Made by a program: the position numbers and the translations under genes. Shown piece by piece: positions 160 through 36,694 of a stretch of 47,096 bases of DNA. Source of the stretch: a virus. Taxonomy: Duplodnaviria; Heunggongvirae; Uroviricota; Caudoviricetes. The notes below the pieces were generated by a model. The model was given only the letters and a program-made list of their open reading frames with translations, searched no databases and was not told the DNA's origin. The stretch is from IMG/VR virus record IMGVR_UViG_2802429246_000002. One strand, written 5' to 3'. Each line of letters starts with the position of its first letter. The stretch's first letter is position 1.

Positions 160-678
160 GTGATGAAATTTAAAAAATGTTTTCTGCCTGTGGCAATTTT
201 AGCGTCATTCACCCTGGCAGGATGCCAGTCAAATGCTGACGACCATGCCGCCGATGTCTATCAAACCGATCAACTGAATACAAAGCAAGAAACTAAAACC
301 GTTAATATTATCTCCATTCTTCCCGCAAAAGTTGCCGTAGATAACTCACAAAATAAACGGAATGCGCAAGCCTTTGGCGCACTTATTGGCGCTGTCGCAG
401 GCGGCGTTATCGGCCATAACGTTGGATCTGGTAGTAACTCCGGAACAACGGCTGGTGCAGTTGGTGGCGGAGCTGTAGGCGCGGCAGCGGGTACTATGGT
501 GAATGATAAAACCTTAGTGGAAGGTGTCTCTTTAACTTATAAGGAAGGCACCAAAGTGTACACCTCCACCCAGGTGGGTAAAGAATGCCAGTTCACAACG
601 GGTTTAGCCGTTGTTATTACCACCACTTATAACGAAACGCGTATTCAGCCAAATACAAAATGTCCTGAAAAGAGCTAA
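160..678 (+). CDS. yfgH: Outer-membrane lipoprotein, glycine-zipper type (YfgH-like)
   Basis: Signal peptide with lipobox LAGC; Gly/Ala-rich zipper GALIGAVAGGVIGHNVG; position two genes from guaA matches the E. coli yfgH-yfgI-guaA neighbourhood as recalled. Confidence 0.6.
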   Translation: MMKFKKCFLPVAILASFTLAGCQSNADDHAADVYQTDQLNTKQETKTVNIISILPAKVAVDNSQNKRNAQAFGALIGAVAGGVIGHNVGSGSNSGTTAGAVGGGAVGAAAGTMVNDKTLVEGVSLTYKEGTKVYTSTQVGKECQFTTGLAVVITTTYNETRIQPNTKCPEKS

Positions 679-693
679 CTATCAGGAGGACTC

Positions 694-1236
694 ATGAAGA
701 AAGTTTTTCTTTGCGCCGCCATATTAGCTGCTGTTAGTAGCCCGGCTTTCGCCTCTTCATTACAGGATCAACTCTCTGCGGTCGCAGAAGCTGAACAGCA
801 AGGCAAAAATGAAGAACAAAGGCAGCATGACGAATGGGTTGCGGAGCGCAACAGGGAAATCCAGCAAGAGAAGCAACGGCGCGCAAACGCTCAGGCCGCA
901 GCGAATAAAAGAGCGGCAGCAGCAGCAGCGGATAAAAAAGCTCGCCAGGATAAACGGGACGCCGAATTCACTGCGGATAAAAAGCGCGATCAAAGTTATG
1001 AAGATGAGCTGCGCAACTTAGAGATTCAGAAGCAAAAACTGGCGCTGGCAAAAGAAGAAGCGCGCGTTAAGCGTGAGAACGAATTTATCGATCAGGAACT
1101 GAAACACAAAGCAGCGCAAACCGATGTTGTACAATCTGAAGCTGACGCTAACAGGAATATGACTGAAGGTGGTCGTGATTTGATGAAAAGCGTGGGTAAA
1201 GCAGAAGAGAATAAATCAGACAGTTGGTTTAATTAA
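694..1236 (+). CDS. yfgI: Secreted coiled-coil protein (YfgI-like)
   Basis: N-terminal signal peptide AFASS; charged K/E/R/Q-rich helical body; RBS AGGAGG upstream; synteny with guaA. Confidence 0.55.
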   Translation: MKKVFLCAAILAAVSSPAFASSLQDQLSAVAEAEQQGKNEEQRQHDEWVAERNREIQQEKQRRANAQAAANKRAAAAAADKKARQDKRDAEFTADKKRDQSYEDELRNLEIQKQKLALAKEEARVKRENEFIDQELKHKAAQTDVVQSEADANRNMTEGGRDLMKSVGKAEENKSDSWFN

Positions 1237-1330: not shown

Positions 1331-1488
1331 CCAAAATATGCTGAAGCCTCGTACGAATAGAAAACCTCAGCATTTAGTGTTCGGGTTTATTCCCACTAAA
1401 TTATTTACGACACACATAACCATTTGACTGATAACAACTTTCTGAAACCTGATTTTCACCGTACCGTTTTATATACCGTCACCGGAAA

Positions 1489-3300: not shown

Positions 3301-3491
3301 GTTTTCCACCGTTTATATGCATAACTACCTCCTGAACAGTAAAGCATTATGCATGATAAACCATTTATGGTTTTTTGTTACTTCAACATCGTCAATCCCC
3401 TGTTTTCATGCCGATAATAAGGCTCACCTTTTACATAACACTGAAGAAACAACAGTACAGAAATGATTCAAACTATGGAGATCGGGTTGAA

Positions 3492-3516
3492 TACCGCGCC
3501 ATCAAATGGCGCGGTA
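3492..3516. other. Perfect 10-bp stem-loop (taccgcgcca-tcaaa-tggcgcggta)
   Basis: Read directly in sequence between the small membrane gene stop and the holin gene; no adjacent U-tract on either strand. Confidence 0.5.
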
Positions 3517-3520
3517 GCGA

Positions 3521-3817
3521 TCAAATAGAGAAATAAATACAAAAACAAAAAATGACAGGAACAGCAAAATCCAACAGACTTCCCACATCCCACACGCGTG
3601 GGTCAAAACCTCCCCACCATGGCATGTTGATACGTTTCCCTTTCCCAAACTTTTCTATCCAGCGATATTCTGCCTGGGTGTGTTCACGCGCAATGAAGAA
3701 CGTACAACCGGCTATCGCACCGTAAGCCCAGTTTCCTGTTATTATTCCGAAGAAACATTGCACAATTATTGATGCAATAGCATGGACAAAAGGAGAATAG
3801 TCAATATTATTCATCAT
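3521..3817 (-). CDS. Small integral membrane protein (unknown function) downstream of tailspike
   Basis: About 99 aa from MMNNIDY; 2-3 hydrophobic helices; AT-rich codon usage. Confidence 0.5.
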   Translation of the reverse strand: MMNNIDYSPFVHAIASIIVQCFFGIITGNWAYGAIAGCTFFIAREHTQAEYRWIEKFGKGKRINMPWWGGFDPRVWDVGSLLDFAVPVIFCFCIYFSI

Positions 3818-3846: not shown

Positions 3847-6588
3847 TTACACAGCACAAATCCTGATCGTTGCTGTGATATCAGTTTCAGTGCCATTATT
3901 GAGATATAACCTACCGCCTACAATTGACATCCCAATTTTGGTAGAAACTTCTTCATCTGCAGATGTCACCACCACGTTTGTTTTATTGTAATTACCAAGC
4001 GGAGATTCATCAGTCGAATGCCCTGGCCTCAATATCATTCCTACACCTGCAAAGAAATTAGGGTTCCCATTATTTATAACATCCACACAATAAGATAATG
4101 CGCTTTTACTAAGTGGGATGGATTGACTTGTATGTGCCTTAACCCACATTTCCCATACGTATTCACTTTTACGTATCGCCCCCTCACATGAACCAGATGC
4201 ATGGAATAACTTTCCTGATGATACAGTGTTATTGGTGCCAACAAGAATCATCTGATTTCCACCACCAAAGCCAAAGTTATCACCAAGAGATGGTCCACCA
4301 TTAATCCTTAACATATATGCATCAGTACTGCCTGATGAGGCGTCAGAGTTATCTATATATACAGTGCAATCACTTATAAGAACGCCATCAATCTTATCTG
4401 GCGCAACAGTATTAGTTTGGACAACGACGAACTCTCTGGTGGTAGATTTTGCCGAACAACCTTTAATAATTGTTGGTGTTTCAAGAGTATATGTTTGAGT
4501 AATAAAAATGAAATTACTAGGACGAAGCTTCCGATTAACAGCATTTGTTGCTTTCCACCATTTATTGCTTGATTCGGTTGTTTCGCTAAAGCCATCAATA
4601 TAGTGAGTATCGGTAATAGTAATTCCGCTACCATAATACAAACGAATCGGAAGGTTGCTAAATCCTCTAATCTCGCAACCAGATACTATCTCATTAAAAC
4701 CACGTATAGTTGCGCCATAAAAACAGTCAACTGCCACATTGTCTTTATATTTAGACTCTGCGGCACCACCATGACTACCAAACCCATAGGAAAATTCAGT
4801 CCATCCTTCCGATGGAAATATAATCCCACCAGTATAACCAGTTCCGCCACCACGCATTGTAATGTTGGTTACATTATTGTAGAGAGAACTCCAGTTACTC
4901 CCTCCAATATCAACACCACGCCTACAACAAGATGCATTGATATTGTCCACAGTGCAGTAACTGCTATTGGAAACAGAAACAGCATTACCTGTACCACCAT
5001 CACCATTGAAAACTCTATTGATTCCATACAGAGATGTATCACGAACAGTGCATCTTAAGCAGCCTAACAAGGTAATCCCAGCATTCGGGAAATTTTCCAC
5101 ACTAGCGAAACTGGCAATACCGTTTACGCAATATTCGAAGACAACCCCATCATAAGCTTTTTGTCCGCTAGTTGCATTGGTAACTAACCCGTGTATCGTC
5201 CCAACATGAAAATCTCCAGAAATATTAAATGTAGCAGGATAGACAGCCCAGGCCTCAGCTTGCCTAACCAAACGAAATGTATCTCCTGCAGCAGGTTTAT
5301 TTGGGAATCCAGTGTCAGCATTACTACCAATAGTAAATGTTTTTGTGTCATCATCATATGCTGTAACCATTTTGGTTATACCAGCATTATCTCCCGTTAA
5401 TCCAAGAATTTTATAGAGTGCATCACGAGGTGGTGATGTCACTGAGAAATTTGTAGATGTAAATGATTGCCCACTAGATGCGCCAGTAACTGTAACTGTA
5501 ATATTCCCTCCTGAACGGTAGTAATAATATGCATCCTGATCTAATGTCACATTATTTCCACTAAGTGAAACGACTTCAACAATTTGCCCTTCCTGCCAAC
5601 TTCCTCGGTTATCTCCACGAACAAGGTGGTTATTACGAATAACAAGCAAATCTCCGACAGAAATATCAGACACATCATCAAGAGTCACAGTCTTTTCGCC
5701 CAATGATATATCTCTCGTTATGAAATTATGCAATTTAGTACTTGCAATTCCACCAAGCTTTATTGCTGAACCTTCATATCCTACAACATTATTTGTGCAG
5801 AGCAATTCAACCTTTCCTGATGCCACCCAATCGAAGCAACCATATGGAATGGAAATATCTATTTGTGAAAACAGGTACTTTCCTGCTGTCCATTCCAAAC
5901 GCTTTCCGTTAGATGCGCAGTAAATGATGGCATTTGTTATTGCGTCTGTATCGTCAGTAATGCCATCCCCTTTTGCACCAAAATCGCGAACATTGACGAT
6001 ATCCCGCATCTTATCCTGGAACGTTCTGTATACTGCTCCAGAACCATACTGAATAAACAAACCAAAACCACCAACAACTCCGGCGATTGCAGCATCGACA
6101 TAATTACGCATTGAGCGATTATTTACAGCATCCTGCTCAAGTGATGGATCTGCAAGGTTAGAAATTCTGTTTTGTTTTGCATCGTAATATTTTGCAAGCA
6201 GAGAGGGCTTCATCAATGCACGTCTGAACCACCCAAAACATTGCTGGATCAGCATCGTCAGATAGTCAAAGGCATCCTCATGCACTTCGGGGAAAAATTT
6301 TCCCTGATTGCGAAGGTCTGTCTCCTGCACTACATCAAGCACACGATCTATCGTAATTCGCCATCCAGCAGCAAGCGGAGACGGAAGAACCACAGAACCG
6401 CCACTATAAGTGCCCGCCCCAGTTACCGTATAACCGGTATCCAGAACCAATTCTGTTACGTTCCCGTTCAGGTCAGACACCTGAACAACCAGGTCTGATT
6501 TTCTGAAAATTCGAAAAGTATACGGAAACGATGTCGTAACGCCGTTACCTGTGTATTCGTTGTGGTCAACTTCGGTTGAGACCGTCAT
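3847..6588 (-). CDS. Tailspike protein with pectate-lyase-like beta-helix (probable polysaccharide depolymerase)
   Basis: 913 aa; conserved podovirus tailspike N-terminal head-binding region; RDFGAKGDGITDDTDAI beta-helix motif; Ser/Thr/Gly/Asn-rich repetitive body. Confidence 0.8.
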   Translation of the reverse strand: MTVSTEVDHNEYTGNGVTTSFPYTFRIFRKSDLVVQVSDLNGNVTELVLDTGYTVTGAGTYSGGSVVLPSPLAAGWRITIDRVLDVVQETDLRNQGKFFPEVHEDAFDYLTMLIQQCFGWFRRALMKPSLLAKYYDAKQNRISNLADPSLEQDAVNNRSMRNYVDAAIAGVVGGFGLFIQYGSGAVYRTFQDKMRDIVNVRDFGAKGDGITDDTDAITNAIIYCASNGKRLEWTAGKYLFSQIDISIPYGCFDWVASGKVELLCTNNVVGYEGSAIKLGGIASTKLHNFITRDISLGEKTVTLDDVSDISVGDLLVIRNNHLVRGDNRGSWQEGQIVEVVSLSGNNVTLDQDAYYYYRSGGNITVTVTGASSGQSFTSTNFSVTSPPRDALYKILGLTGDNAGITKMVTAYDDDTKTFTIGSNADTGFPNKPAAGDTFRLVRQAEAWAVYPATFNISGDFHVGTIHGLVTNATSGQKAYDGVVFEYCVNGIASFASVENFPNAGITLLGCLRCTVRDTSLYGINRVFNGDGGTGNAVSVSNSSYCTVDNINASCCRRGVDIGGSNWSSLYNNVTNITMRGGGTGYTGGIIFPSEGWTEFSYGFGSHGGAAESKYKDNVAVDCFYGATIRGFNEIVSGCEIRGFSNLPIRLYYGSGITITDTHYIDGFSETTESSNKWWKATNAVNRKLRPSNFIFITQTYTLETPTIIKGCSAKSTTREFVVVQTNTVAPDKIDGVLISDCTVYIDNSDASSGSTDAYMLRINGGPSLGDNFGFGGGNQMILVGTNNTVSSGKLFHASGSCEGAIRKSEYVWEMWVKAHTSQSIPLSKSALSYCVDVINNGNPNFFAGVGMILRPGHSTDESPLGNYNKTNVVVTSADEEVSTKIGMSIVGGRLYLNNGTETDITATIRICAV

Positions 6589-6691
6589 GTTAAATCTCCA
6601 GATAGTCGCAGCACCCGTTGCGCCGCATATCTGGTTATTCTATTACCTGAAAAACCACATATGGATAGAAAGACTGTAAATACGAATAGAT

Positions 6692-6708
6692 ATTACCTTT
6701 CAGGTAAT
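6692..6708. promoter_or_regulatory. 17-bp inverted repeat attacct-ttc-aggtaat (operator-like site A)
   Basis: Exact 7-bp arms, reverse complements of each other; member of a family of at least 13 sites. Confidence 0.6.
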
Positions 6709-6744
6709 TTGCAAAACGTGCTGGATAGCAAACAAATTATTTGC

Positions 6745-6764
6745 TACTGTATAAATATACAGTT
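6745..6764. promoter_or_regulatory. Putative LexA (SOS) box TACTGTATAAATATACAGTT
   Basis: CTGT-N8-ACAG with AT-rich spacer, near-consensus, about 20 bp upstream of the ATG at 6784 with GGAG RBS in between. Confidence 0.7.
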
Positions 6765-6783
6765 ATTGCATGGAGAAGATAAG

Positions 6784-7041
6784 ATGCAGCAGTATCACTA
6801 TCCACTGGAAGACGGATTTACCGAAAGGATTCACACGCCGGGAGGCGTCAGATCACTGGTGGAGGGATCGCACTTGATGAAATTACTCCGGGATCTCGAT
6901 AAGGATGGATTTAATGTCGATGGCCCACTTGCCGAACTGACTGCACTGATTAACTACGTCACCAGCTCACAGATGTCTATGCAGGATCTGCAAACACATC
7001 TCGACTATTGTGCCGAACAATTACGAAAACAAACCCGGTAA
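6784..7041 (+). CDS. Small antirepressor-like protein (homolog of the C-terminal domain of the antirepressor at 8190..8885)
   Basis: 85 aa from MQQYHYPLEDGF; aligns with C-terminus of the 8190 ORF (Y..PL..G...IH.P.GV..L.E.S.LM.LL..L..DG..V.G..AELT); LexA box upstream. Confidence 0.6.
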   Translation: MQQYHYPLEDGFTERIHTPGGVRSLVEGSHLMKLLRDLDKDGFNVDGPLAELTALINYVTSSQMSMQDLQTHLDYCAEQLRKQTR

Positions 7042-7063
7042 ATTTAAAGGCCGCAAGAGCGGC

Positions 7064-7792
7064 CTATCGTTTCGCTTTGTGCTCGTCCCAGCACGTTTTG
7101 CACCATGCCATTAAGCCGTCCGCATTTTGATTATTAGGGTAAAAGCTGGTTCGTTTTCTGCGGACATTACAAATTGGGCACCACTTCATATGACGTGTAT
7201 TCTTTGGGCCATCGAGACACCTTGCACACCACTTAGTCAATCCATCTGGATTTTTTGACGATTTCCTGAATTTTTCATATGGAAGGTTTATTCTGCATCG
7301 CAAGCACTGCTTGCTACCGCTTGAAACTCTGTTAGCTGATTCTTCTTTTGGCGGCGATACAGAAGATATTCTTGCTGGCTCTGATACTGCCTGAGGTGCT
7401 TTTTTAAATGACTGAGACGATATGTCATCACCAGGGAATCTTCCATGATATGCCGGACGCGTTGACACTCCAGGTGGAAGCTCAGCTGTAAACGGCTTTG
7501 GCTGAATCAGTTGCCTCTCTTTTGCTAACTCCTGCTGTTTATAATATGTCTGGATTACCGCACTATCATAAGCAGGAGGTGCGGAAATATTAGGCGCATT
7601 ACCTCCAGTTTTTTGAAACTGAGTAGAGGTGTGTTCTATCACCTGTGTACGATTAATCGTTATCTCCCCATCTTCGGTCTTTATCGTTTTGTTATGATTA
7701 ACGACCGTACGATCAGAGATCTTAGTCTTGTTCTGGTTGATAACGTAAATAATCACCGTAACCACACCAACAACTATCCAGAAAACTTCCAT
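7064..7792 (-). CDS. Membrane-anchored protein with Pro-rich linker and tandem C-terminal zinc-ribbon repeats
   Basis: N-terminal TM helix; two repeats of C-x2-C-x(13-17)-DGL-x2-WC-x2-C; GAGGAA RBS; operator-like site 20 bp upstream. Confidence 0.6.
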   Translation of the reverse strand: MEVFWIVVGVVTVIIYVINQNKTKISDRTVVNHNKTIKTEDGEITINRTQVIEHTSTQFQKTGGNAPNISAPPAYDSAVIQTYYKQQELAKERQLIQPKPFTAELPPGVSTRPAYHGRFPGDDISSQSFKKAPQAVSEPARISSVSPPKEESANRVSSGSKQCLRCRINLPYEKFRKSSKNPDGLTKWCARCLDGPKNTRHMKWCPICNVRRKRTSFYPNNQNADGLMAWCKTCWDEHKAKR

Positions 7793-7811: not shown

Positions 7812-7828
7812 ATTACCTTAAAGGTAAT
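7812..7828. promoter_or_regulatory. 17-bp inverted repeat attacct-taa-aggtaat (site B)
   Basis: Exact arms; about 20 bp upstream of the minus-strand gene starting at 7792. Confidence 0.6.
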
Positions 7829-7904: not shown

Positions 7905-7921
7905 ATTACCTTTGCGGTAAA
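7905..7921. promoter_or_regulatory. 17-bp inverted repeat attacct-ttg-cggtaaa (site B2)
   Basis: Same motif family with one arm mismatch. Confidence 0.5.
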
Positions 7922-8189
7922 TTTACATCGCACTCCTCTTGTGCCATAGTAATCGGGCACTGGCAAAATCCAGTGCCGGGATTGGCGTCCCGGATTACTA
8001 AAAGGCGCATTCACCGCGCAAGCGGTTTTTTTATGCGTATAGCACGGCCACATTCGTATTATGGTGGGCTGTGTGGGGGCACCGAAAGGTGCGCCGGGTC
8101 CTTTTAGCCGGTTACGCCAACCCTGCACAGTTCACCACCAACCGATTGGCGTCGGTAGTGGTGATTAACCAGACTAAAAGGTAACCACT

Positions 8190-8885
8190 ATGACAGCTAC
8201 AAAAAGCACGTCCATTTTTTCTTTCGAATCCCAAGCCGATATACGGGTAATCGTCATTAATGGTGAGCCATGGTTTATCGCTTCAGATGTTTGTCGGGCT
8301 ATAGGCATAGCAAACCATCGAGATGCTGTTCGAAAACTTGATGATGATGAGAAGGGCGTCGCTTCAACCGACACCCCTGGCGGTGAGCAAGAATCGATCA
8401 TTATCTCCGAGTCAGGCCTCTACACACTGATCCTCCGCTGCCGCGATGCGGTGACACCAGGCACTATCCCCTACCGCTTTCGTAAATGGGTTACAGGTGA
8501 GGTTCTTCCTCAGATCCGCCGCACCGGAAGTTACATTAAAAACTCGCTCCCGCAGGAAGAACGCATAAAGATGGTTGCCGACCAGGTTGCCAACGCCACG
8601 GCGTCAGCAGTAATGCAGGCGATGAAGATAGAGAACAAAACCTACAGCGCCCCGCTGAAGCCAGGATACCGCAGTCTGATTCACTCGCCGTCTGGTGTTC
8701 TCGGCCTGACGGAGAACTCACTGCTGATGAATCTGCTGAACCAGTTACAGGAAGACGGGCATGATGTATCGGGCGCGGCGGCGGAGCTGACCACCATGTT
8801 CTGCTACATCGTCGGTGTGAGTAAATGCCTGCGTGATATCCAGACGCATGCGGAGTACATCAACGACAAGGCTGGGTTCTTCTGA
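8190..8885 (+). CDS. Antirepressor (Bro-N/KilA-type N-terminal domain + Ant C-terminal domain)
   Basis: N-terminal IRVIVINGEPWFIASDVCRAIG...ISESGLYTLILRCRD resembles Bro-N; C-terminal domain homologous to the 6784..7041 ORF. Confidence 0.7.
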   Translation: MTATKSTSIFSFESQADIRVIVINGEPWFIASDVCRAIGIANHRDAVRKLDDDEKGVASTDTPGGEQESIIISESGLYTLILRCRDAVTPGTIPYRFRKWVTGEVLPQIRRTGSYIKNSLPQEERIKMVADQVANATASAVMQAMKIENKTYSAPLKPGYRSLIHSPSGVLGLTENSLLMNLLNQLQEDGHDVSGAAAELTTMFCYIVGVSKCLRDIQTHAEYINDKAGFF

Positions 8886-8950: not shown

Positions 8951-8967
8951 ATTACCTTAAAGGTAAA
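8951..8967. promoter_or_regulatory. 17-bp inverted repeat attacct-taa-aggtaaa (site C)
   Basis: Sits 26 bp upstream of the ATG at 8993 with strong GAGGAGGAG RBS in between. Confidence 0.55.
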
Positions 8968-8992: not shown

Positions 8993-9202
8993 ATGGGATT
9001 TTGGTTCGCTCGTACAAAAACGAGGGATAATGCACCCAGCCCTCAGGCAAAAAATGCAGAAGTTCCGGCGTCAGCGCAGGTTAACAAGCGTGGTGGAGTA
9101 TATATCTCATCACAGCAAATTTCTGAGCTTCCTGAGGTTAAGGAGATGCGTCGTCTCGCTGCTGCAATTGTTAAACAGGATCTTGCCACTGTAAGGAAGT
9201 AG
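8993..9202 (+). CDS. Small soluble protein (69 aa), first gene of a two-gene cargo operon
   Basis: Strong RBS GAGGAGGAG; stop overlaps start of the downstream membrane protein gene (TAGTG); no recognizable domain. Confidence 0.55.
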   Translation: MGFWFARTKTRDNAPSPQAKNAEVPASAQVNKRGGVYISSQQISELPEVKEMRRLAAAIVKQDLATVRK

Positions 9203-10068
9203 TGTTGCTAGCTCTTCTAATTATCCCAATCCTGGTTAGCGGTTATATTATGATAACCGCTAACCAGTATCATTATTTCCGTTTATACCGACACGAAGGC
9301 CAGCTTCTTTATATGAAAGTAGCGGCACTAGGTACATATTGCCTTGTTGCATCAGTAATAATTGCAGCCGCTATAAAATATAAATGGCCTGATTTTCACC
9401 TAGTTCACGATATGGTGGAAACTTTTAATGTAACATCAAAACCAGAAACAGATAGAATTTACATGTGGCTGCTTCTTCTCTCAGCCACATCCATTTGCTT
9501 CTCTTTGTGTTATGTGTCTGTTGTGTGGGTGAAAGATTTTCTTCTTGGTTGTTTTTATAAACGTGATATTTACGAGCAAAAAACAGAGGCAATGAAGGCC
9601 AGAGTACTGCGAAAAACTTACTCGCAGGGTTCTTTAGACTTACTATTGCTTGATGCTATTGAATCGGATCCTAAACGACCAATGCTGATTACTTTATCAT
9701 CAAACAAAGTGTATGTTGGAATAATAAATGGTTCTGGTGAACCAACGGAAAATCAGGGTCCGCATCAGCACATATCTTTTGTTCCTTTAATGTCAGGATA
9801 CAGGAACAAAGAAAACTTATCTGTCACATTCACTAATGCTTATCCAGGAGAAATACAGGTCAAGCGGACTGCAGCAATAAGAGGAATTAGCAGAAAGAAA
9901 GTGCCAGGACTTGAGATCATGGTGTCTATTGACGAAATAAGTTATATATCATGGTTTGATTTTGAAGTATATAAAGCAACAAATAACAAAGTAGAATCCA
10001 GGGGGCACGTTATTCGTGTTACCAAAAATGGAAGAAATATATATCAAAGAAATAGCAAAAAAGAATAG
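9202..10068 (+). CDS. Integral membrane protein (3-4 N-terminal TM helices) with ~150 aa C-terminal soluble domain; unknown function
   Basis: 288 aa; GTG start overlapping upstream stop; AT-rich codon usage; followed by intrinsic terminator. Confidence 0.65.
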   Translation: MLLALLIIPILVSGYIMITANQYHYFRLYRHEGQLLYMKVAALGTYCLVASVIIAAAIKYKWPDFHLVHDMVETFNVTSKPETDRIYMWLLLLSATSICFSLCYVSVVWVKDFLLGCFYKRDIYEQKTEAMKARVLRKTYSQGSLDLLLLDAIESDPKRPMLITLSSNKVYVGIINGSGEPTENQGPHQHISFVPLMSGYRNKENLSVTFTNAYPGEIQVKRTAAIRGISRKKVPGLEIMVSIDEISYISWFDFEVYKATNNKVESRGHVIRVTKNGRNIYQRNSKKE

Positions 10069-10351: not shown

Positions 10352-11203
10352 TCACTGTGCAGTTTTCGCTGATCGATTTTCAGCTCTAAATTCAAGAACC
10401 GTTTCAATATTTCTTTCCTTCAGCATATCAATAACATTTTTATTCATTTGACTATCACTGGTTAATAACTGGTAAACGTTGCTTCTCTCTTTATCAGAGT
10501 TTTCTTTAACAGCTGCTTTGCATGCCAAATGCTTATTGAAATTTTCTACATCGCTAGTACAGGAATTTACGGCTGCTGATGAAATATCAGACGCTGAAGA
10601 AACACCATCATCCAAACGTTTTATAGCATTTTCTATACATGAGTTAAGGGAATAAACGACAACTGAGCGATACCCTTCAGACGCACACCATTCTAAATTT
10701 CTTGAAGGATCGAGTGGTTTTACTTCGCTGGATTGAATTAACTTGTCAAAAACTGACTTATATTCAATCTGTTTTTTATCTATAGCCCATACTTCAGTAG
10801 CTGATTTATAATTCCCCGTATGCCTATTAACATCAAATCCATGTTTTATAAGCAAATCTGCCCATGAAAGATTTATTGATTCATTGTTATGAGGCCATTT
10901 TCCTGTCAGAACCGCCCCCATAGACCCCATATATCCGCCATATGATGGTATAGCACCATGGCTCAGTAACTTCTCAGCAACCACAGGGCAATTAATTACA
11001 TAAGAGGCGTAAAGCCCATTCCATAAAGCCCCTCTATAGTAATCGCCACGATTAGGTTCTTTTAAGTCGATAGCCTTTGATAATTGTTCACACGTTTTGC
11101 ATGCATCAAAGTTATCCTTATTGCATTGCAATGAACTGGCAGCTGTAGGATTTACAGAGACTATTGAAAGCACTATGCCAAAAAACAAATTTATTTTTTT
11201 CAT
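10352..11203 (-). CDS. Secreted protein with possible ankyrin-like repeats (AT-rich cargo gene at the end of the ejection-protein operon)
   Basis: N-terminal signal peptide; segments VAEKLLSHGAIPS and WADLLIKHGFDVN loosely resemble ankyrin repeat cores; about 38% GC; starts 1 bp after the stop of the upstream gene. Confidence 0.5.
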   Translation of the reverse strand: MKKINLFFGIVLSIVSVNPTAASSLQCNKDNFDACKTCEQLSKAIDLKEPNRGDYYRGALWNGLYASYVINCPVVAEKLLSHGAIPSYGGYMGSMGAVLTGKWPHNNESINLSWADLLIKHGFDVNRHTGNYKSATEVWAIDKKQIEYKSVFDKLIQSSEVKPLDPSRNLEWCASEGYRSVVVYSLNSCIENAIKRLDDGVSSASDISSAAVNSCTSDVENFNKHLACKAAVKENSDKERSNVYQLLTSDSQMNKNVIDMLKERNIETVLEFRAENRSAKTAQ

Positions 11204-26646: not shown

Positions 26647-26663
26647 ATTACCTTTCAGGTAAC
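26647..26663. promoter_or_regulatory. 17-bp inverted repeat attacct-ttc-aggtaac (site D)
   Basis: Same motif family; upstream of the GC-rich structured region and tRNA. Confidence 0.5.
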
Positions 26664-26984: not shown

Positions 26985-27061
26985 GTGGCATTAGCTCAGC
27001 TGGACAGAGCAACCGCCTTCTAAGCGGTTGGTCGCAGGTTCGAATCCTGCATGCCACGCCA
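26985..27061 (+). tRNA. tRNA-Arg (anticodon UCU), phage-encoded
   Basis: Manual fold: acceptor GTGGCAT/ATGCCAC, D-stem GCTC/GAGC, anticodon stem ACCGC/GCGGT with loop CTTCTAA, T-stem GCAGG/CCTGC with loop TTCGAAT, discriminator G, encoded CCA; sequence differs from E. coli argU. Confidence 0.85.
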
Positions 27062-35589: not shown

Positions 35590-35820
35590 TCATGAGTAGA
35601 AGAAGTATGCCAGTTCTGCTTTTGAGCGCAGCCATTGTCTTGTTTTACAGGCTTTAAAAAGCCCATTCATCAATACCTTACCTGGCATTTTGCGCTTACC
35701 TGTTAAGTGAGTCTGGATATAGTGACTCGTCGTTCCGGCTTCCTGTGCGAAGGCTTCACGCTCATCCGGAGTAAGTGCAAGCCAGTGCTTTTTGAAATCG
35801 AAATGTCCGTTATCGCTCAT
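35590..35820 (-). CDS. Cro/YdaS-like HTH regulator
   Basis: 76 aa; putative HTH AFAQEAGTTSHYIQTHLTGKRKMP; divergent from repressor gene; first gene of replication-side operon. Confidence 0.6.
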   Translation of the reverse strand: MSDNGHFDFKKHWLALTPDEREAFAQEAGTTSHYIQTHLTGKRKMPGKVLMNGLFKACKTRQWLRSKAELAYFFYS

Positions 35821-35886
35821 AGCTATTGCCTGATATTTATTTCAGATAATAAATATTCACCCATAAGGTAACAAAAATCAAGGATA

Positions 35887-35920
35887 GTTACCTATGAGGT
35901 GCATTTACCTGTTGGGTAAT
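35887..35920. promoter_or_regulatory. Tandem operator-like sites gttacct-atg-aggtgca and tttacct-gtt-gggtaat in the divergent immunity intergenic region
   Basis: Two adjacent 17-bp sites of the aTTACCT-N3-AGGTAAt family between the cro-like start (35820) and repressor start (35975); extra half-site aggtaac at 35866. Confidence 0.6.
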
Positions 35921-35974: not shown

Positions 35975-36559
35975 ATGAAAAGTATCCAGGACGTCCGCAG
36001 GCAAAATCTCAACGACTTGATCGACCGTGAATTCAATGGTGTTCAGACGCGGATGGCAGAAAAACTTGGAACTCAGGCAAATCTGGTAAACCGCTGGGCT
36101 CTTGGCAAGAAGGTTATCGGCGACCAGGTTGCGCGAAAAATTGAAGCTGCCGCCAATAAACCCCGTAACTGGCTTGATATCGATCGCTCGCTTTCTCAGG
36201 AAGGTTTTCAGCCTGTCGGCCCAAGCGACATTGGTCAGCTGGCGGCTCACAACCTGGAACGCTGGATGAGCGAAAGCCGCGACCTTTCAACACAGGGAAA
36301 ACTTCACCGCGCATCCGGCGTCGCCCAGGTAACAATCAGCCGCCTGTTAAACAATGAGGTCAGCGTTTCCATTTCCACCCTGGAGAATGTTGCATCCGCA
36401 TTCGGGCGTCACGGCTATGAATTACTGATTCACCCGCACGACCCTGCGACCATCAACTATGACCGCTCGCGCTACGCATTGTTACCCGAAACCGAGAAAG
36501 CAAAGATCGAAAGTTACATTGAATTTGTCATCAACCAGAACGAAAAAAATAAACAATAA
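35975..36559 (+). CDS. Prophage repressor (CI-like), two HTH-like regions, no obvious LexA/S24-type autocleavage domain
   Basis: 194 aa; N-terminal XRE-type HTH (VQTRMAEKLGTQANLVNRW) and second HTH-like segment (GVAQVTISRLLNNEVSVSISTLENVA); divergent to cro-like gene. Confidence 0.65.
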   Translation: MKSIQDVRRQNLNDLIDREFNGVQTRMAEKLGTQANLVNRWALGKKVIGDQVARKIEAAANKPRNWLDIDRSLSQEGFQPVGPSDIGQLAAHNLERWMSESRDLSTQGKLHRASGVAQVTISRLLNNEVSVSISTLENVASAFGRHGYELLIHPHDPATINYDRSRYALLPETEKAKIESYIEFVINQNEKNKQ

Positions 36560-36615: not shown

Positions 36616-36632
36616 ATTACCTTATGGGTAAT
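36616..36632. promoter_or_regulatory. 17-bp inverted repeat attacct-tat-gggtaat (site H; OL-like position)
   Basis: Downstream of repressor gene, upstream of the recombination-side operon. Confidence 0.55.
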
Positions 36633-36677
36633 TTTTTTAGCTCATATCTATTGACATCAAACCAAATACGCATAATC

Positions 36678-36694
36678 ATTACCCCAACGGTAAC
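36678..36694. promoter_or_regulatory. Inverted repeat attacc-ccaac-ggtaac (site H2)
   Basis: 6-bp arms ATTACC/GGTAAC with 5-bp spacer; 19 bp upstream of ATG at 36713. Confidence 0.45.

Follow-up and report, generated by a model that had tools for sequence, protein, structure and literature searches.

A probable SPC32H-type induction switch with a second, C4-gated antirepressor in an epsilon15-like prophage

The closest described counterpart of the locus reported here is the Rep/Ant/LexA switch of the Salmonella phage SPC32H (Kim and Ryu 2013, J Virol; Kim et al. 2016, PNAS; PDB 5D50, 5D4Z), for which a passage in PMC7380047 cites Kim and Ryu 2013 to the effect that self-cleavage of LexA releases the antirepressor Ant, which inactivates the phage repressor by protein-protein contact. 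As a passage in PMC9638917 summarises the 2016 structure, the repressor Rep sits on DNA as a tetramer, and an Ant tetramer engages two Rep dimers, disrupting the Rep tetramer. Here we analyze a 47,096-nucleotide stretch of viral DNA (IMG/VR record IMGVR_UViG_2802429246_000002; the window, meaning the whole stretch), and in particular a small gene at 6784..7041 that follows a LexA box, its larger paralogue at 8190..8885, which encodes a Bro-N::Ant fusion, and the repressor gene at 35975..36559. We consider it highly probable that the locus is an induction module orthologous to the SPC32H switch, equipped with a second antirepressor gated by a C4 antisense RNA. With SPC32H the window shares an Ant orthologue, its position, the LexA box, the upstream operator and the Rep family; SPC32H and the other Salmonella relatives differ in lacking the isrK/C4/Bro-N::Ant cassette and in a Rep protein that is only 42% identical to that of the window.

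Other described systems resemble parts of this arrangement. In the immI regions of P1 and P7, the pairing segments of C4 lie between two sets of targets (a1/b1 - a'/b' - a2/b2), C4 is processed from the target transcript, the promoter is repressor-controlled, and the P1 and P7 specificity types are set by compensatory changes. The window shares with immI the duplicated a/b targets on both sides of C4 and a promoter of predicted repressor control, but differs in having no icd and in an antirepressor and a repressor that are unrelated to P1 Ant and C1. N15 resembles the window in combining an SOS-controlled antC with a small-RNA-gated immA operon (CA RNA, icd, antA, antB) (Ravin 1999; Mardanov and Ravin 2007), and in immA we find Rfam matches to isrK and C4 directly 5' of the gene for the Bro-N protein gp30, which is 54% identical to the window protein over the first 115 residues, with no alignment beyond residue 115. 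N15 differs in the icd-like open reading frames (ORFs) between C4 and antA and in its repressor CB, a different protein. The Gifsy-1 isrK-orf45-anrP operon (Hershko-Shalev et al. 2016; PMC4825925) likewise has a terminated isrK RNA, transcription that reads on into a C4-like segment, and an inducing antirepressor, but coupling through orf45 is essential there, whereas in the window the C4 loop is predicted to pair directly with the antirepressor Shine-Dalgarno sequence. Finally, 186 Tum and the Gifsy antirepressors GfoA, GftA and GfhA share the layout of a LexA box before a small protein that binds a non-cleavable repressor (PMC3121763). An earlier reading of the window from its letters (the original prediction) had likened the small gene to these last systems; they hold up as functional analogues, but no kinship was detected, with no Tum/DinI domain found in Pfam, NCBIfam, PADLOC and profile searches (which did not include a pairwise comparison with Tum), and the true family is that of SPC32H Ant.

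Between 6500 and 9000, the window matches TL-2011b at 97% identity across 97% of the region; ZX5 and phiV10 also match, with more distant matches in epsilon15, SPC32H and Tyrion. By sequence likeness, the window carries an epsilon15-like (Uetakevirus-type) podophage prophage in guaA, near TL-2011b, phiV10 and vB_EcoP_ZX5; the matched phages are all of this type. The small gene and its upstream elements are as follows.

6692..6708: perfect palindrome ATTACCTTTCAGGTAAT, putative Rep operator, 36 bp 5' of the LexA box
6727..6755, plus strand: putative ant promoter, with -35 TAGCAA at 6727..6732 and -10 TATAAA at 6750..6755, placed from the sequence and an 11-phage alignment
6745..6764: LexA (SOS) box TACTGTATAAATATACAGTT, 7 nt 5' of the Shine-Dalgarno GGAG
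6784..7041, plus strand: ant, 85-amino-acid (aa) stand-alone antirepressor of the SPC32H Ant family, with Shine-Dalgarno GGAG at 6772..6775 and ATG at 6784
7048..7065: GC-rich hairpin between ant and the convergent gene for a 242-aa protein

A near-consensus SOS box ahead of the ribosome-binding site (RBS) and ATG of the 85-aa ORF was the starting point of the original prediction, and scoring bears it out. With a Berg-von Hippel type heterology index, based on a set of 19 genuine E. coli SOS boxes, the site at 6745..6764 obtains 1.58, which puts it ahead of 16 boxes of the set (whose range is 0.6 to 9.3); a poor LexA score is thereby ruled out, and the site is the only one below 9 in the 47-kb window. 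None of 500 random 47-kb first-order Markov sequences reached 1.58, their mean best score being 10.6. The same scan found no second LexA box near the isrK promoter or rep: the next-best site, within int, scores 9.2, a value equalled or bettered by chance in 62 of the 500 random windows.

These scores bear on the possibility that the LexA-like palindrome is a chance or vestigial feature and that ant answers to Rep alone through 6692..6708. Such a reading would account for the perfect Rep operator so close upstream, and the box does fit a CTGT-N8-ACAG palindrome with an AT-rich spacer (CTGTATAAATATACAG) whose bare core has three matches in the window against 0.6 expected, and is thus not rare alone. 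Against it stand, besides the random-sequence result, the patterns of conservation in an alignment of the tailspike-ant intergenic region from 11 phages (with E. coli, Salmonella, Enterobacter and Klebsiella as hosts): the arms TACTGT...ATACAGT are kept, while the spacer and flanking bases drift. Kim and Ryu 2013 is also cited, in a passage of PMC7380047, as an example of antirepressor control by LexA. Between SPC32H and SPC32N the alignment shows one base difference only, which lies inside the box, a C to A change in the CAG arm at the position of C6760 in the window. The SPC32N box mutation is said to make Ant constitutive and the phage virulent. Taking these points together, we regard a chance box as very improbable indeed. 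The Klebsiella phages carry a one-mismatch box, with ATGT replacing CTGT in the left arm, and LexA control may be weaker or differently tuned in them. The ATTACC/GGTAA core of the 6692..6708 operator is invariant in all 11 aligned phages. As placed, the -10 element of the ant promoter would fall within the LexA box, and the hairpin at 7048..7065, which the scan calls a minus-strand terminator, may end ant transcription.

The protein itself is 88% identical over residues 2-84 to SPC32H Ant, annotated "ant, anti-repressor protein" in SPC32H and SPC32N, and it matches chain E of PDB 5D50 ("Anti-repressor protein", 86 aa) at E=4e-47 (phmmer) and PHROG 450 at E=9e-48. As in SPC32H, the ant locus is divergent from the tailspike gene. 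The ORF caller extends ant to 126 aa from an in-frame ATG at 6661, a form (6661..7041) that overlies both the Rep operator and the LexA box and belongs to a protein cluster (P0003, 126 aa) with 833 member sequences. We prefer the 85-aa start because it has a Shine-Dalgarno sequence and its length matches that of the crystallised 86-aa SPC32H Ant, so that the longer form is probably a mis-call. In comparison with relatives, the small gene has a ratio of nonsynonymous to synonymous substitution (dN/dS) of 0.05 to 0.09. That the small ORF is instead a duplicate of the Bro-N protein's C-terminus in decay was considered and ruled out by dN/dS, by its own Shine-Dalgarno sequence and promoter, and by the crystallised orthologue. 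At least 80% of the region occurs in 112 of 5,426 complete E. coli genomes, and the small Ant is labelled "hypothetical" among the genomes listed. Because the family has no Pfam or NCBIfam model and PHROGs gives its function as unknown, the E. coli gene goes by that label; Pfam, NCBIfam and PADLOC gave no family for either Ant paralogue except Bro-N.

The target of such an antirepressor would be the product of rep. We list this gene here with the palindromes that we read as its operators.

35975..36559, plus strand: rep, 194-aa prophage repressor of the SPC32H Rep family, with two helix-turn-helix (HTH) domains
35857..35920: three operator-like palindromes between a cro-like gene (35590..35820, minus strand) and rep
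36616..36694: two putative operator palindromes (36616 and 36678) 3' of rep, ahead of the rightward recombination operon
7812..7828: putative Rep operator ATTACCTTAAAGGTAAT, ahead of the 242-aa minus-strand gene
7905..7921: putative Rep operator ATTACCTTTGCGGTAAA, abutting the -35 element of the isrK promoter
8951, 26647, 27264, 33555, 33617, 35519 and 41760: further putative operator copies

Rep is 42% identical to SPC32H Rep over its full length, matches PDB 5D50_A (E=4e-42) and 5D4Z, both named "Repressor", and is 100% identical to the repressors of ZX5 and phiV10. Pfam gives only HTH domains in it, and the proposal that the repressor has no recognizable S24 autocleavage domain therefore stands; Peptidase_S24 was also absent from the 20 other ORFs scanned (19 ORFs of the prophage early region and the host guaA). 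SPC32H Rep likewise has two HTH domains, no S24 domain and operators of the form ATTACC-N5-GGTAAT. In the window, TTACCT-N3-AGGTAA occurs in 18 copies at no more than two mismatches, versus 1.1 expected; a comparable palindrome cluster flanks rep in SPC32H, and the GenBank record of epsilon15 annotates the ant-proximal palindrome as a repressor binding site ("repressor, lysogeny"). Motif and placement point to the ATTACC-N5-GGTAAT palindrome as the Rep operator. The copies at 7812, 7905, 8951, 26647 and 27264 precede accessory cassettes, and nearly all accessory ("moron") cassettes have a copy ahead of them, in addition to those at rep/cro. Such a prophage-wide spread resembles the dispersed C1 operators of P1 more than the OL/OR pair of lambda.

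A search of phage records recovered Ant homologues from 35 of them and Rep homologues from 36, with essentially complete overlap. The degree of divergence varies between groups of relatives: the Salmonella relatives have an Ant that is 84-88% identical to the window Ant with a Rep that is only 42% identical, and the Enterobacter phages show about 78-85% Ant identity with 75-78% Rep identity. For this mosaic mismatch, either Ant would read conserved features of Rep or the modules may have been reshuffled.

The second antirepressor gene lies 3' of ant behind an RNA leader, and together they form the following cassette.

7922..7950, plus strand: isrK promoter (TTTACA, 17-nt spacer, CATAGT, extended -10 TG), ending 7 nt before the isrK start
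7957..8032, plus strand: isrK-type RNA with terminator (Rfam RF01394, 77.9 bits; gathering threshold 50)
7980 and 7998: upstream C4 targets in isrK, a1 GATTGGCGTC at 7980 and b1 CTAAAAGG at 7998
8057..8142, plus strand: C4 antisense RNA (Rfam RF01695, 77.7 bits; gathering threshold 45; full model, 1-87)
8144..8181, plus strand: downstream C4 targets, a2 GATTGGCGTC at 8144..8153 and b2 CTAAAAGG at 8174..8181
8190..8885, plus strand: 231-aa antirepressor, with Bro-N at residues 17-107 and a C-terminal Ant-like domain at residues ~149-229 (8634..8876)

The 231-aa protein matches Bro-N (PF02498) at E=2.3e-21 and PHROG 130, "anti-repressor Ant", at E=3.7e-63, and its C-terminus matches PDB 5D50_E at E=1e-13. 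Small Ant aligns with residues 150-223 of this protein at 31 of 74 identical positions (42%, E=8e-16), in agreement with the homology between the 85-aa ORF and the larger antirepressor's C-terminus that the original prediction had noticed, and 20 columns are invariant across both paralogue types. The fused Ant domain has a dN/dS of 0.13 to 0.28, so that this range and the lower one of small ant indicate that both paralogues are held by purifying selection. The protein is 100% identical to ORF4 of ZX5, whose overexpression brought the prophage titre down about 1000-fold, from 1e9 to 1e6, and reduced transcription of rep by 75% (PMC9782041). That 2022 study analysed the Bro-N protein only; LexA, SPC32H, the small Ant and the RNA leader go unmentioned in it (PMC9782041). 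We infer that Rep is the target of the Bro-N protein and that the Ant domain makes the contact.

An alternative function for the shared domain is that it serves mainly in oligomerisation, with Bro-N::Ant co-assembling with small Ant and so modulating it, or acting on the repressor of a co-resident prophage. Ant is given as tetrameric in a passage of PMC9638917, 20 positions are invariant between the paralogues, the domain is also found fused to Bro-N, AntA, Rha and ORF6N heads, and Gifsy antirepressors act in trans on other prophages (PMC3121763). Yet ZX5 ORF4, without added small Ant, moves ZX5 from lysogeny and lowers rep transcription (PMC9782041), the Bro-N::Ant fusion occurs only in those searched phage records that also hold a Rep homologue, and mixed tetramers are uncertain because the paralogues are only about 40% identical. 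On balance, we consider a mainly oligomeric or cross-prophage role improbable, and keep to Rep as the target of both proteins.

The original prediction had also proposed that a structured leader precedes the 231-aa gene, and the two Rfam matches, each well above its gathering score, identify this leader as isrK followed by C4. From the position of the isrK promoter, transcription is predicted to begin near 7957, where the isrK model has its first base, and a terminator-like hairpin at 8013..8026 followed by a T-run lies within isrK. In C4, the loop CCTTTTAG (8100) is complementary to CTAAAAGG, present only at 7998 and 8174, and the segment ACGCCAA (8114) is complementary to GATTGGCGT, at 7980 and 8144; the b2 copy covers the Shine-Dalgarno sequence of the Bro-N gene. 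The pairing elements of the window and of three relatives compare as follows.

Window: a targets GATTGGCGT with a' ACGCCAA; b targets CTAAAAGG with b' CCTTTTAG
Tyrion: a targets GATTGGTCT with a' AGACCAA; b target CTACAAAGG (RBS copy) with b' CCTTTGTAG
Kp4865-1: a targets GATTGAGAC with a' GTCTCAA
KpOXA245phi3.2: b targets CTAAACGG / CTAAGCGG with b' CCGTTTAG

In Tyrion, Kp4865-1 and KpOXA245phi3.2, compensatory changes are found in all three elements (upstream target, C4 and downstream target), with the isrK b copy of Tyrion pairing with C4 through a G-U wobble. Because the relatives show compensatory changes in three elements, there is good evidence, drawn from covariation, that C4 would gate translation of the Bro-N gene. 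A 35-aa ORF at 8061..8168, placed like orf45 of Gifsy-1, starts inside C4 and stops 21 nt before the Bro-N ATG. Tyrion and Kp4865-1 have counterparts of only 15 aa, and that of KpOXA245phi3.2 runs in frame into ant, so conservation of this ORF as a coding element is improbable. For want of such conservation of ORF 8061..8168, we ruled out a Gifsy-1-like translational coupling by way of an icd- or orf45-type upstream ORF.

The presence of isrK and a C4-like leader, as in Gifsy-1, raises the possibility of two independent inputs, with small Ant reporting SOS and Bro-N::Ant reporting another signal, such as stationary phase or low Mg2+, through isrK/C4, so that either would induce alone. The Gifsy-1 isrK-orf45-anrP operon drives SOS-independent induction, and IsrK is up in stationary phase and in low Mg2+ (PMC4825925). 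ZX5 lysogens, for their part, show high spontaneous induction, with 1e7 PFU (plaque-forming units)/mL of free phage. Independence is disfavored by the Rep operator that abuts the isrK -35 element in all five phages compared (the window, phiV10, Tyrion and two Klebsiella phages), so that the promoter should be silent in a stable lysogen, and by the variable coupling ORF of Gifsy-1 type (35 aa, 15 aa or fused). Since a Rep operator precedes it, the Bro-N gene would probably not act as an input of its own while lysogeny is stable, and we rate two independent inputs as somewhat unlikely. The description of two antirepressor paralogues as an unusual dual input was overstated in another respect: of 10 relatives inspected, TL-2011b, Tyrion and two Klebsiella phages, 4 in all, have ant, isrK/C4 and Bro-N::Ant together, phiV10 carries a frameshifted form, and N15 pairs a LexA-controlled with an isrK/C4-gated antirepressor.

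The original prediction, that a LexA-controlled antirepressor rather than cleavage of the repressor brings about induction, gains support from the 88% identical SPC32H orthologue (PDB 5D50) and from the conserved box, gene position and Rep family. Building on these observed features, homologies, conservation and covariation, we propose a switch in which LexA control, Ant-Rep binding and the anti-lysogenic activity of the Bro-N protein are carried over by analogy from the literature on orthologues. In the lysogen, Rep would occupy the ATTACC-N5-GGTAAT operators throughout the prophage, and host LexA on 6745..6764, overlapping the ant promoter, would keep Ant from being made. DNA damage would activate RecA, LexA would cleave itself, and the 85-aa Ant would be synthesised, bind Rep and strip it from the operators, so that lytic genes come on with Rep left uncleaved. 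Bro-N::Ant would be transcribed from the promoter abutting a Rep operator, its translation gated by a C4 RNA of P1/N15 type whose loop pairs with the RBS. Silent under bound Rep, the Bro-N gene would fire after the first displacement of Rep, on infection, or at a shift in isrK/C4, and its product would reinforce or bypass the SOS trigger rather than serve as a simple parallel sensor.

Several points weigh against this model. The 42% identity of Rep to its SPC32H counterpart stands against 88% for Ant, and conservation of the Rep-Ant interface is for that reason only assumed. A simple sigma-70 consensus scan calls no ant promoter. In every E. coli record the small Ant is labelled "hypothetical", and ZX5 ORF4 was overexpressed as a glutathione S-transferase (GST) fusion, with prophage titre and rep transcription as the readouts (PMC9782041). 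Finally, the Bro-N gene of phiV10 (3491..3747 in that phage) is frameshifted inside the Ant domain and annotated as p23 and p22; if no sequencing error is behind this, at least one viable phage can do without the second antirepressor.

In its core, the switch is already known, being the SPC32H Rep/Ant/LexA system in an E. coli relative, and the second antirepressor joins an isrK-C4 cassette of N15/P1/Gifsy-1 type to the Ant domain. What is new is modest: both antirepressors share one effector domain, and the Bro-N gene appears to be both Rep-repressed and C4-gated, which suggests a reinforcing latch over an independent sensor. The LexA box and Ant would explain the response of phiV10- and ZX5-type prophages in pathogenic E. 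coli to SOS-inducing antibiotics, and the labels given to the E. coli gene reveal an annotation gap for an antirepressor family that has been crystallised and is mechanistically understood.

The occurrence of one Ant domain behind interchangeable heads and regulatory cassettes suggests where repressor specificity may be seated. A profile built from the two paralogues recovered only 64 cluster representatives (E<=1e-3) among 1.84 billion with HMMER, all of them proteins with an Ant domain; most matches are stand-alone proteins of 80 to 95 aa, and some lie C-terminal to Bro-N, AntA, Phage_pRha or ORF6N heads. Three chassis are seen for the domain, namely the bare LexA-controlled gene, the Rep-repressed and C4-gated Bro-N fusion, and, in TL-2011b, an Ant fusion of P22 type under Arc/sar control. 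A tentative reading, to which we give somewhat less than an even chance, is that the ~80-residue Ant domain is a portable Rep-targeting "warhead" mounted on differently regulated chassis, that the Bro-N copy is a Rep-repressed latch with positive feedback, making SOS induction irreversible, and that Bro-N-like heads are generic while the C-terminal domain carries repressor specificity. If true, this would provide a general rule for reading modular phage antirepressors. The third copy of TL-2011b, gp42 (314 aa), is an Ant of P22 type, and its C-terminal domain shares 91% identity with the one in the Bro-N protein; its gene adjoins an Arc-like repressor and an Rfam match to sar RNA (6562..7746 in TL-2011b), and the window has no gp42.

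Other genes near the antirepressor loci are listed next.

7064..7792, minus strand: 242-aa protein, between ant and the isrK cassette, with its own putative operator at 7812..7828
8993..10068: operon for 69-aa and 288-aa proteins, behind a putative Rep operator at 8951..8967
10352..11203: convergent gene for a 283-aa protein

The 242-aa protein has an N-terminal hydrophobic segment and C-terminal Cys-rich repeats (endonuclease VII / Lar-like zinc ribbon) and belongs to PHROG 6762 (unknown function); it has no PADLOC match, and its gene is absent at that position in phiV10, Tyrion and the Klebsiella phages. For the 69-, 288- and 283-aa proteins, Pfam, NCBIfam and PADLOC gave no match and PHROGs gave only families of unknown function; the 283-aa protein has, by eye, an apparent N-terminal signal peptide. 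All three are candidate lysogenic-conversion or defence genes.

The ends of the prophage are marked by the following features.

41909..41925: right attachment site ATTGAGTGGGAATGATT, within the guaA 3' end, matching the published core at all 17 bp
40468..41718: tyrosine integrase gene

ZX5, phiV10 and epsilon15 are reported to integrate at this end of guaA as well (PMC9782041). A search of the window at up to three mismatches to the right copy found no left attachment site, and a degenerate copy with about four mismatches was found by eye near 1388..1404; from these two positions, the prophage would be about 40.5 kb long. Two host ORFs with lipoprotein-like products, at 160..1236, flank its left end. 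Within the prophage, a tRNA-Arg gene (anticodon UCU) lies at 26985..27061, between the Rep-operator palindromes at 26647 and 27264.

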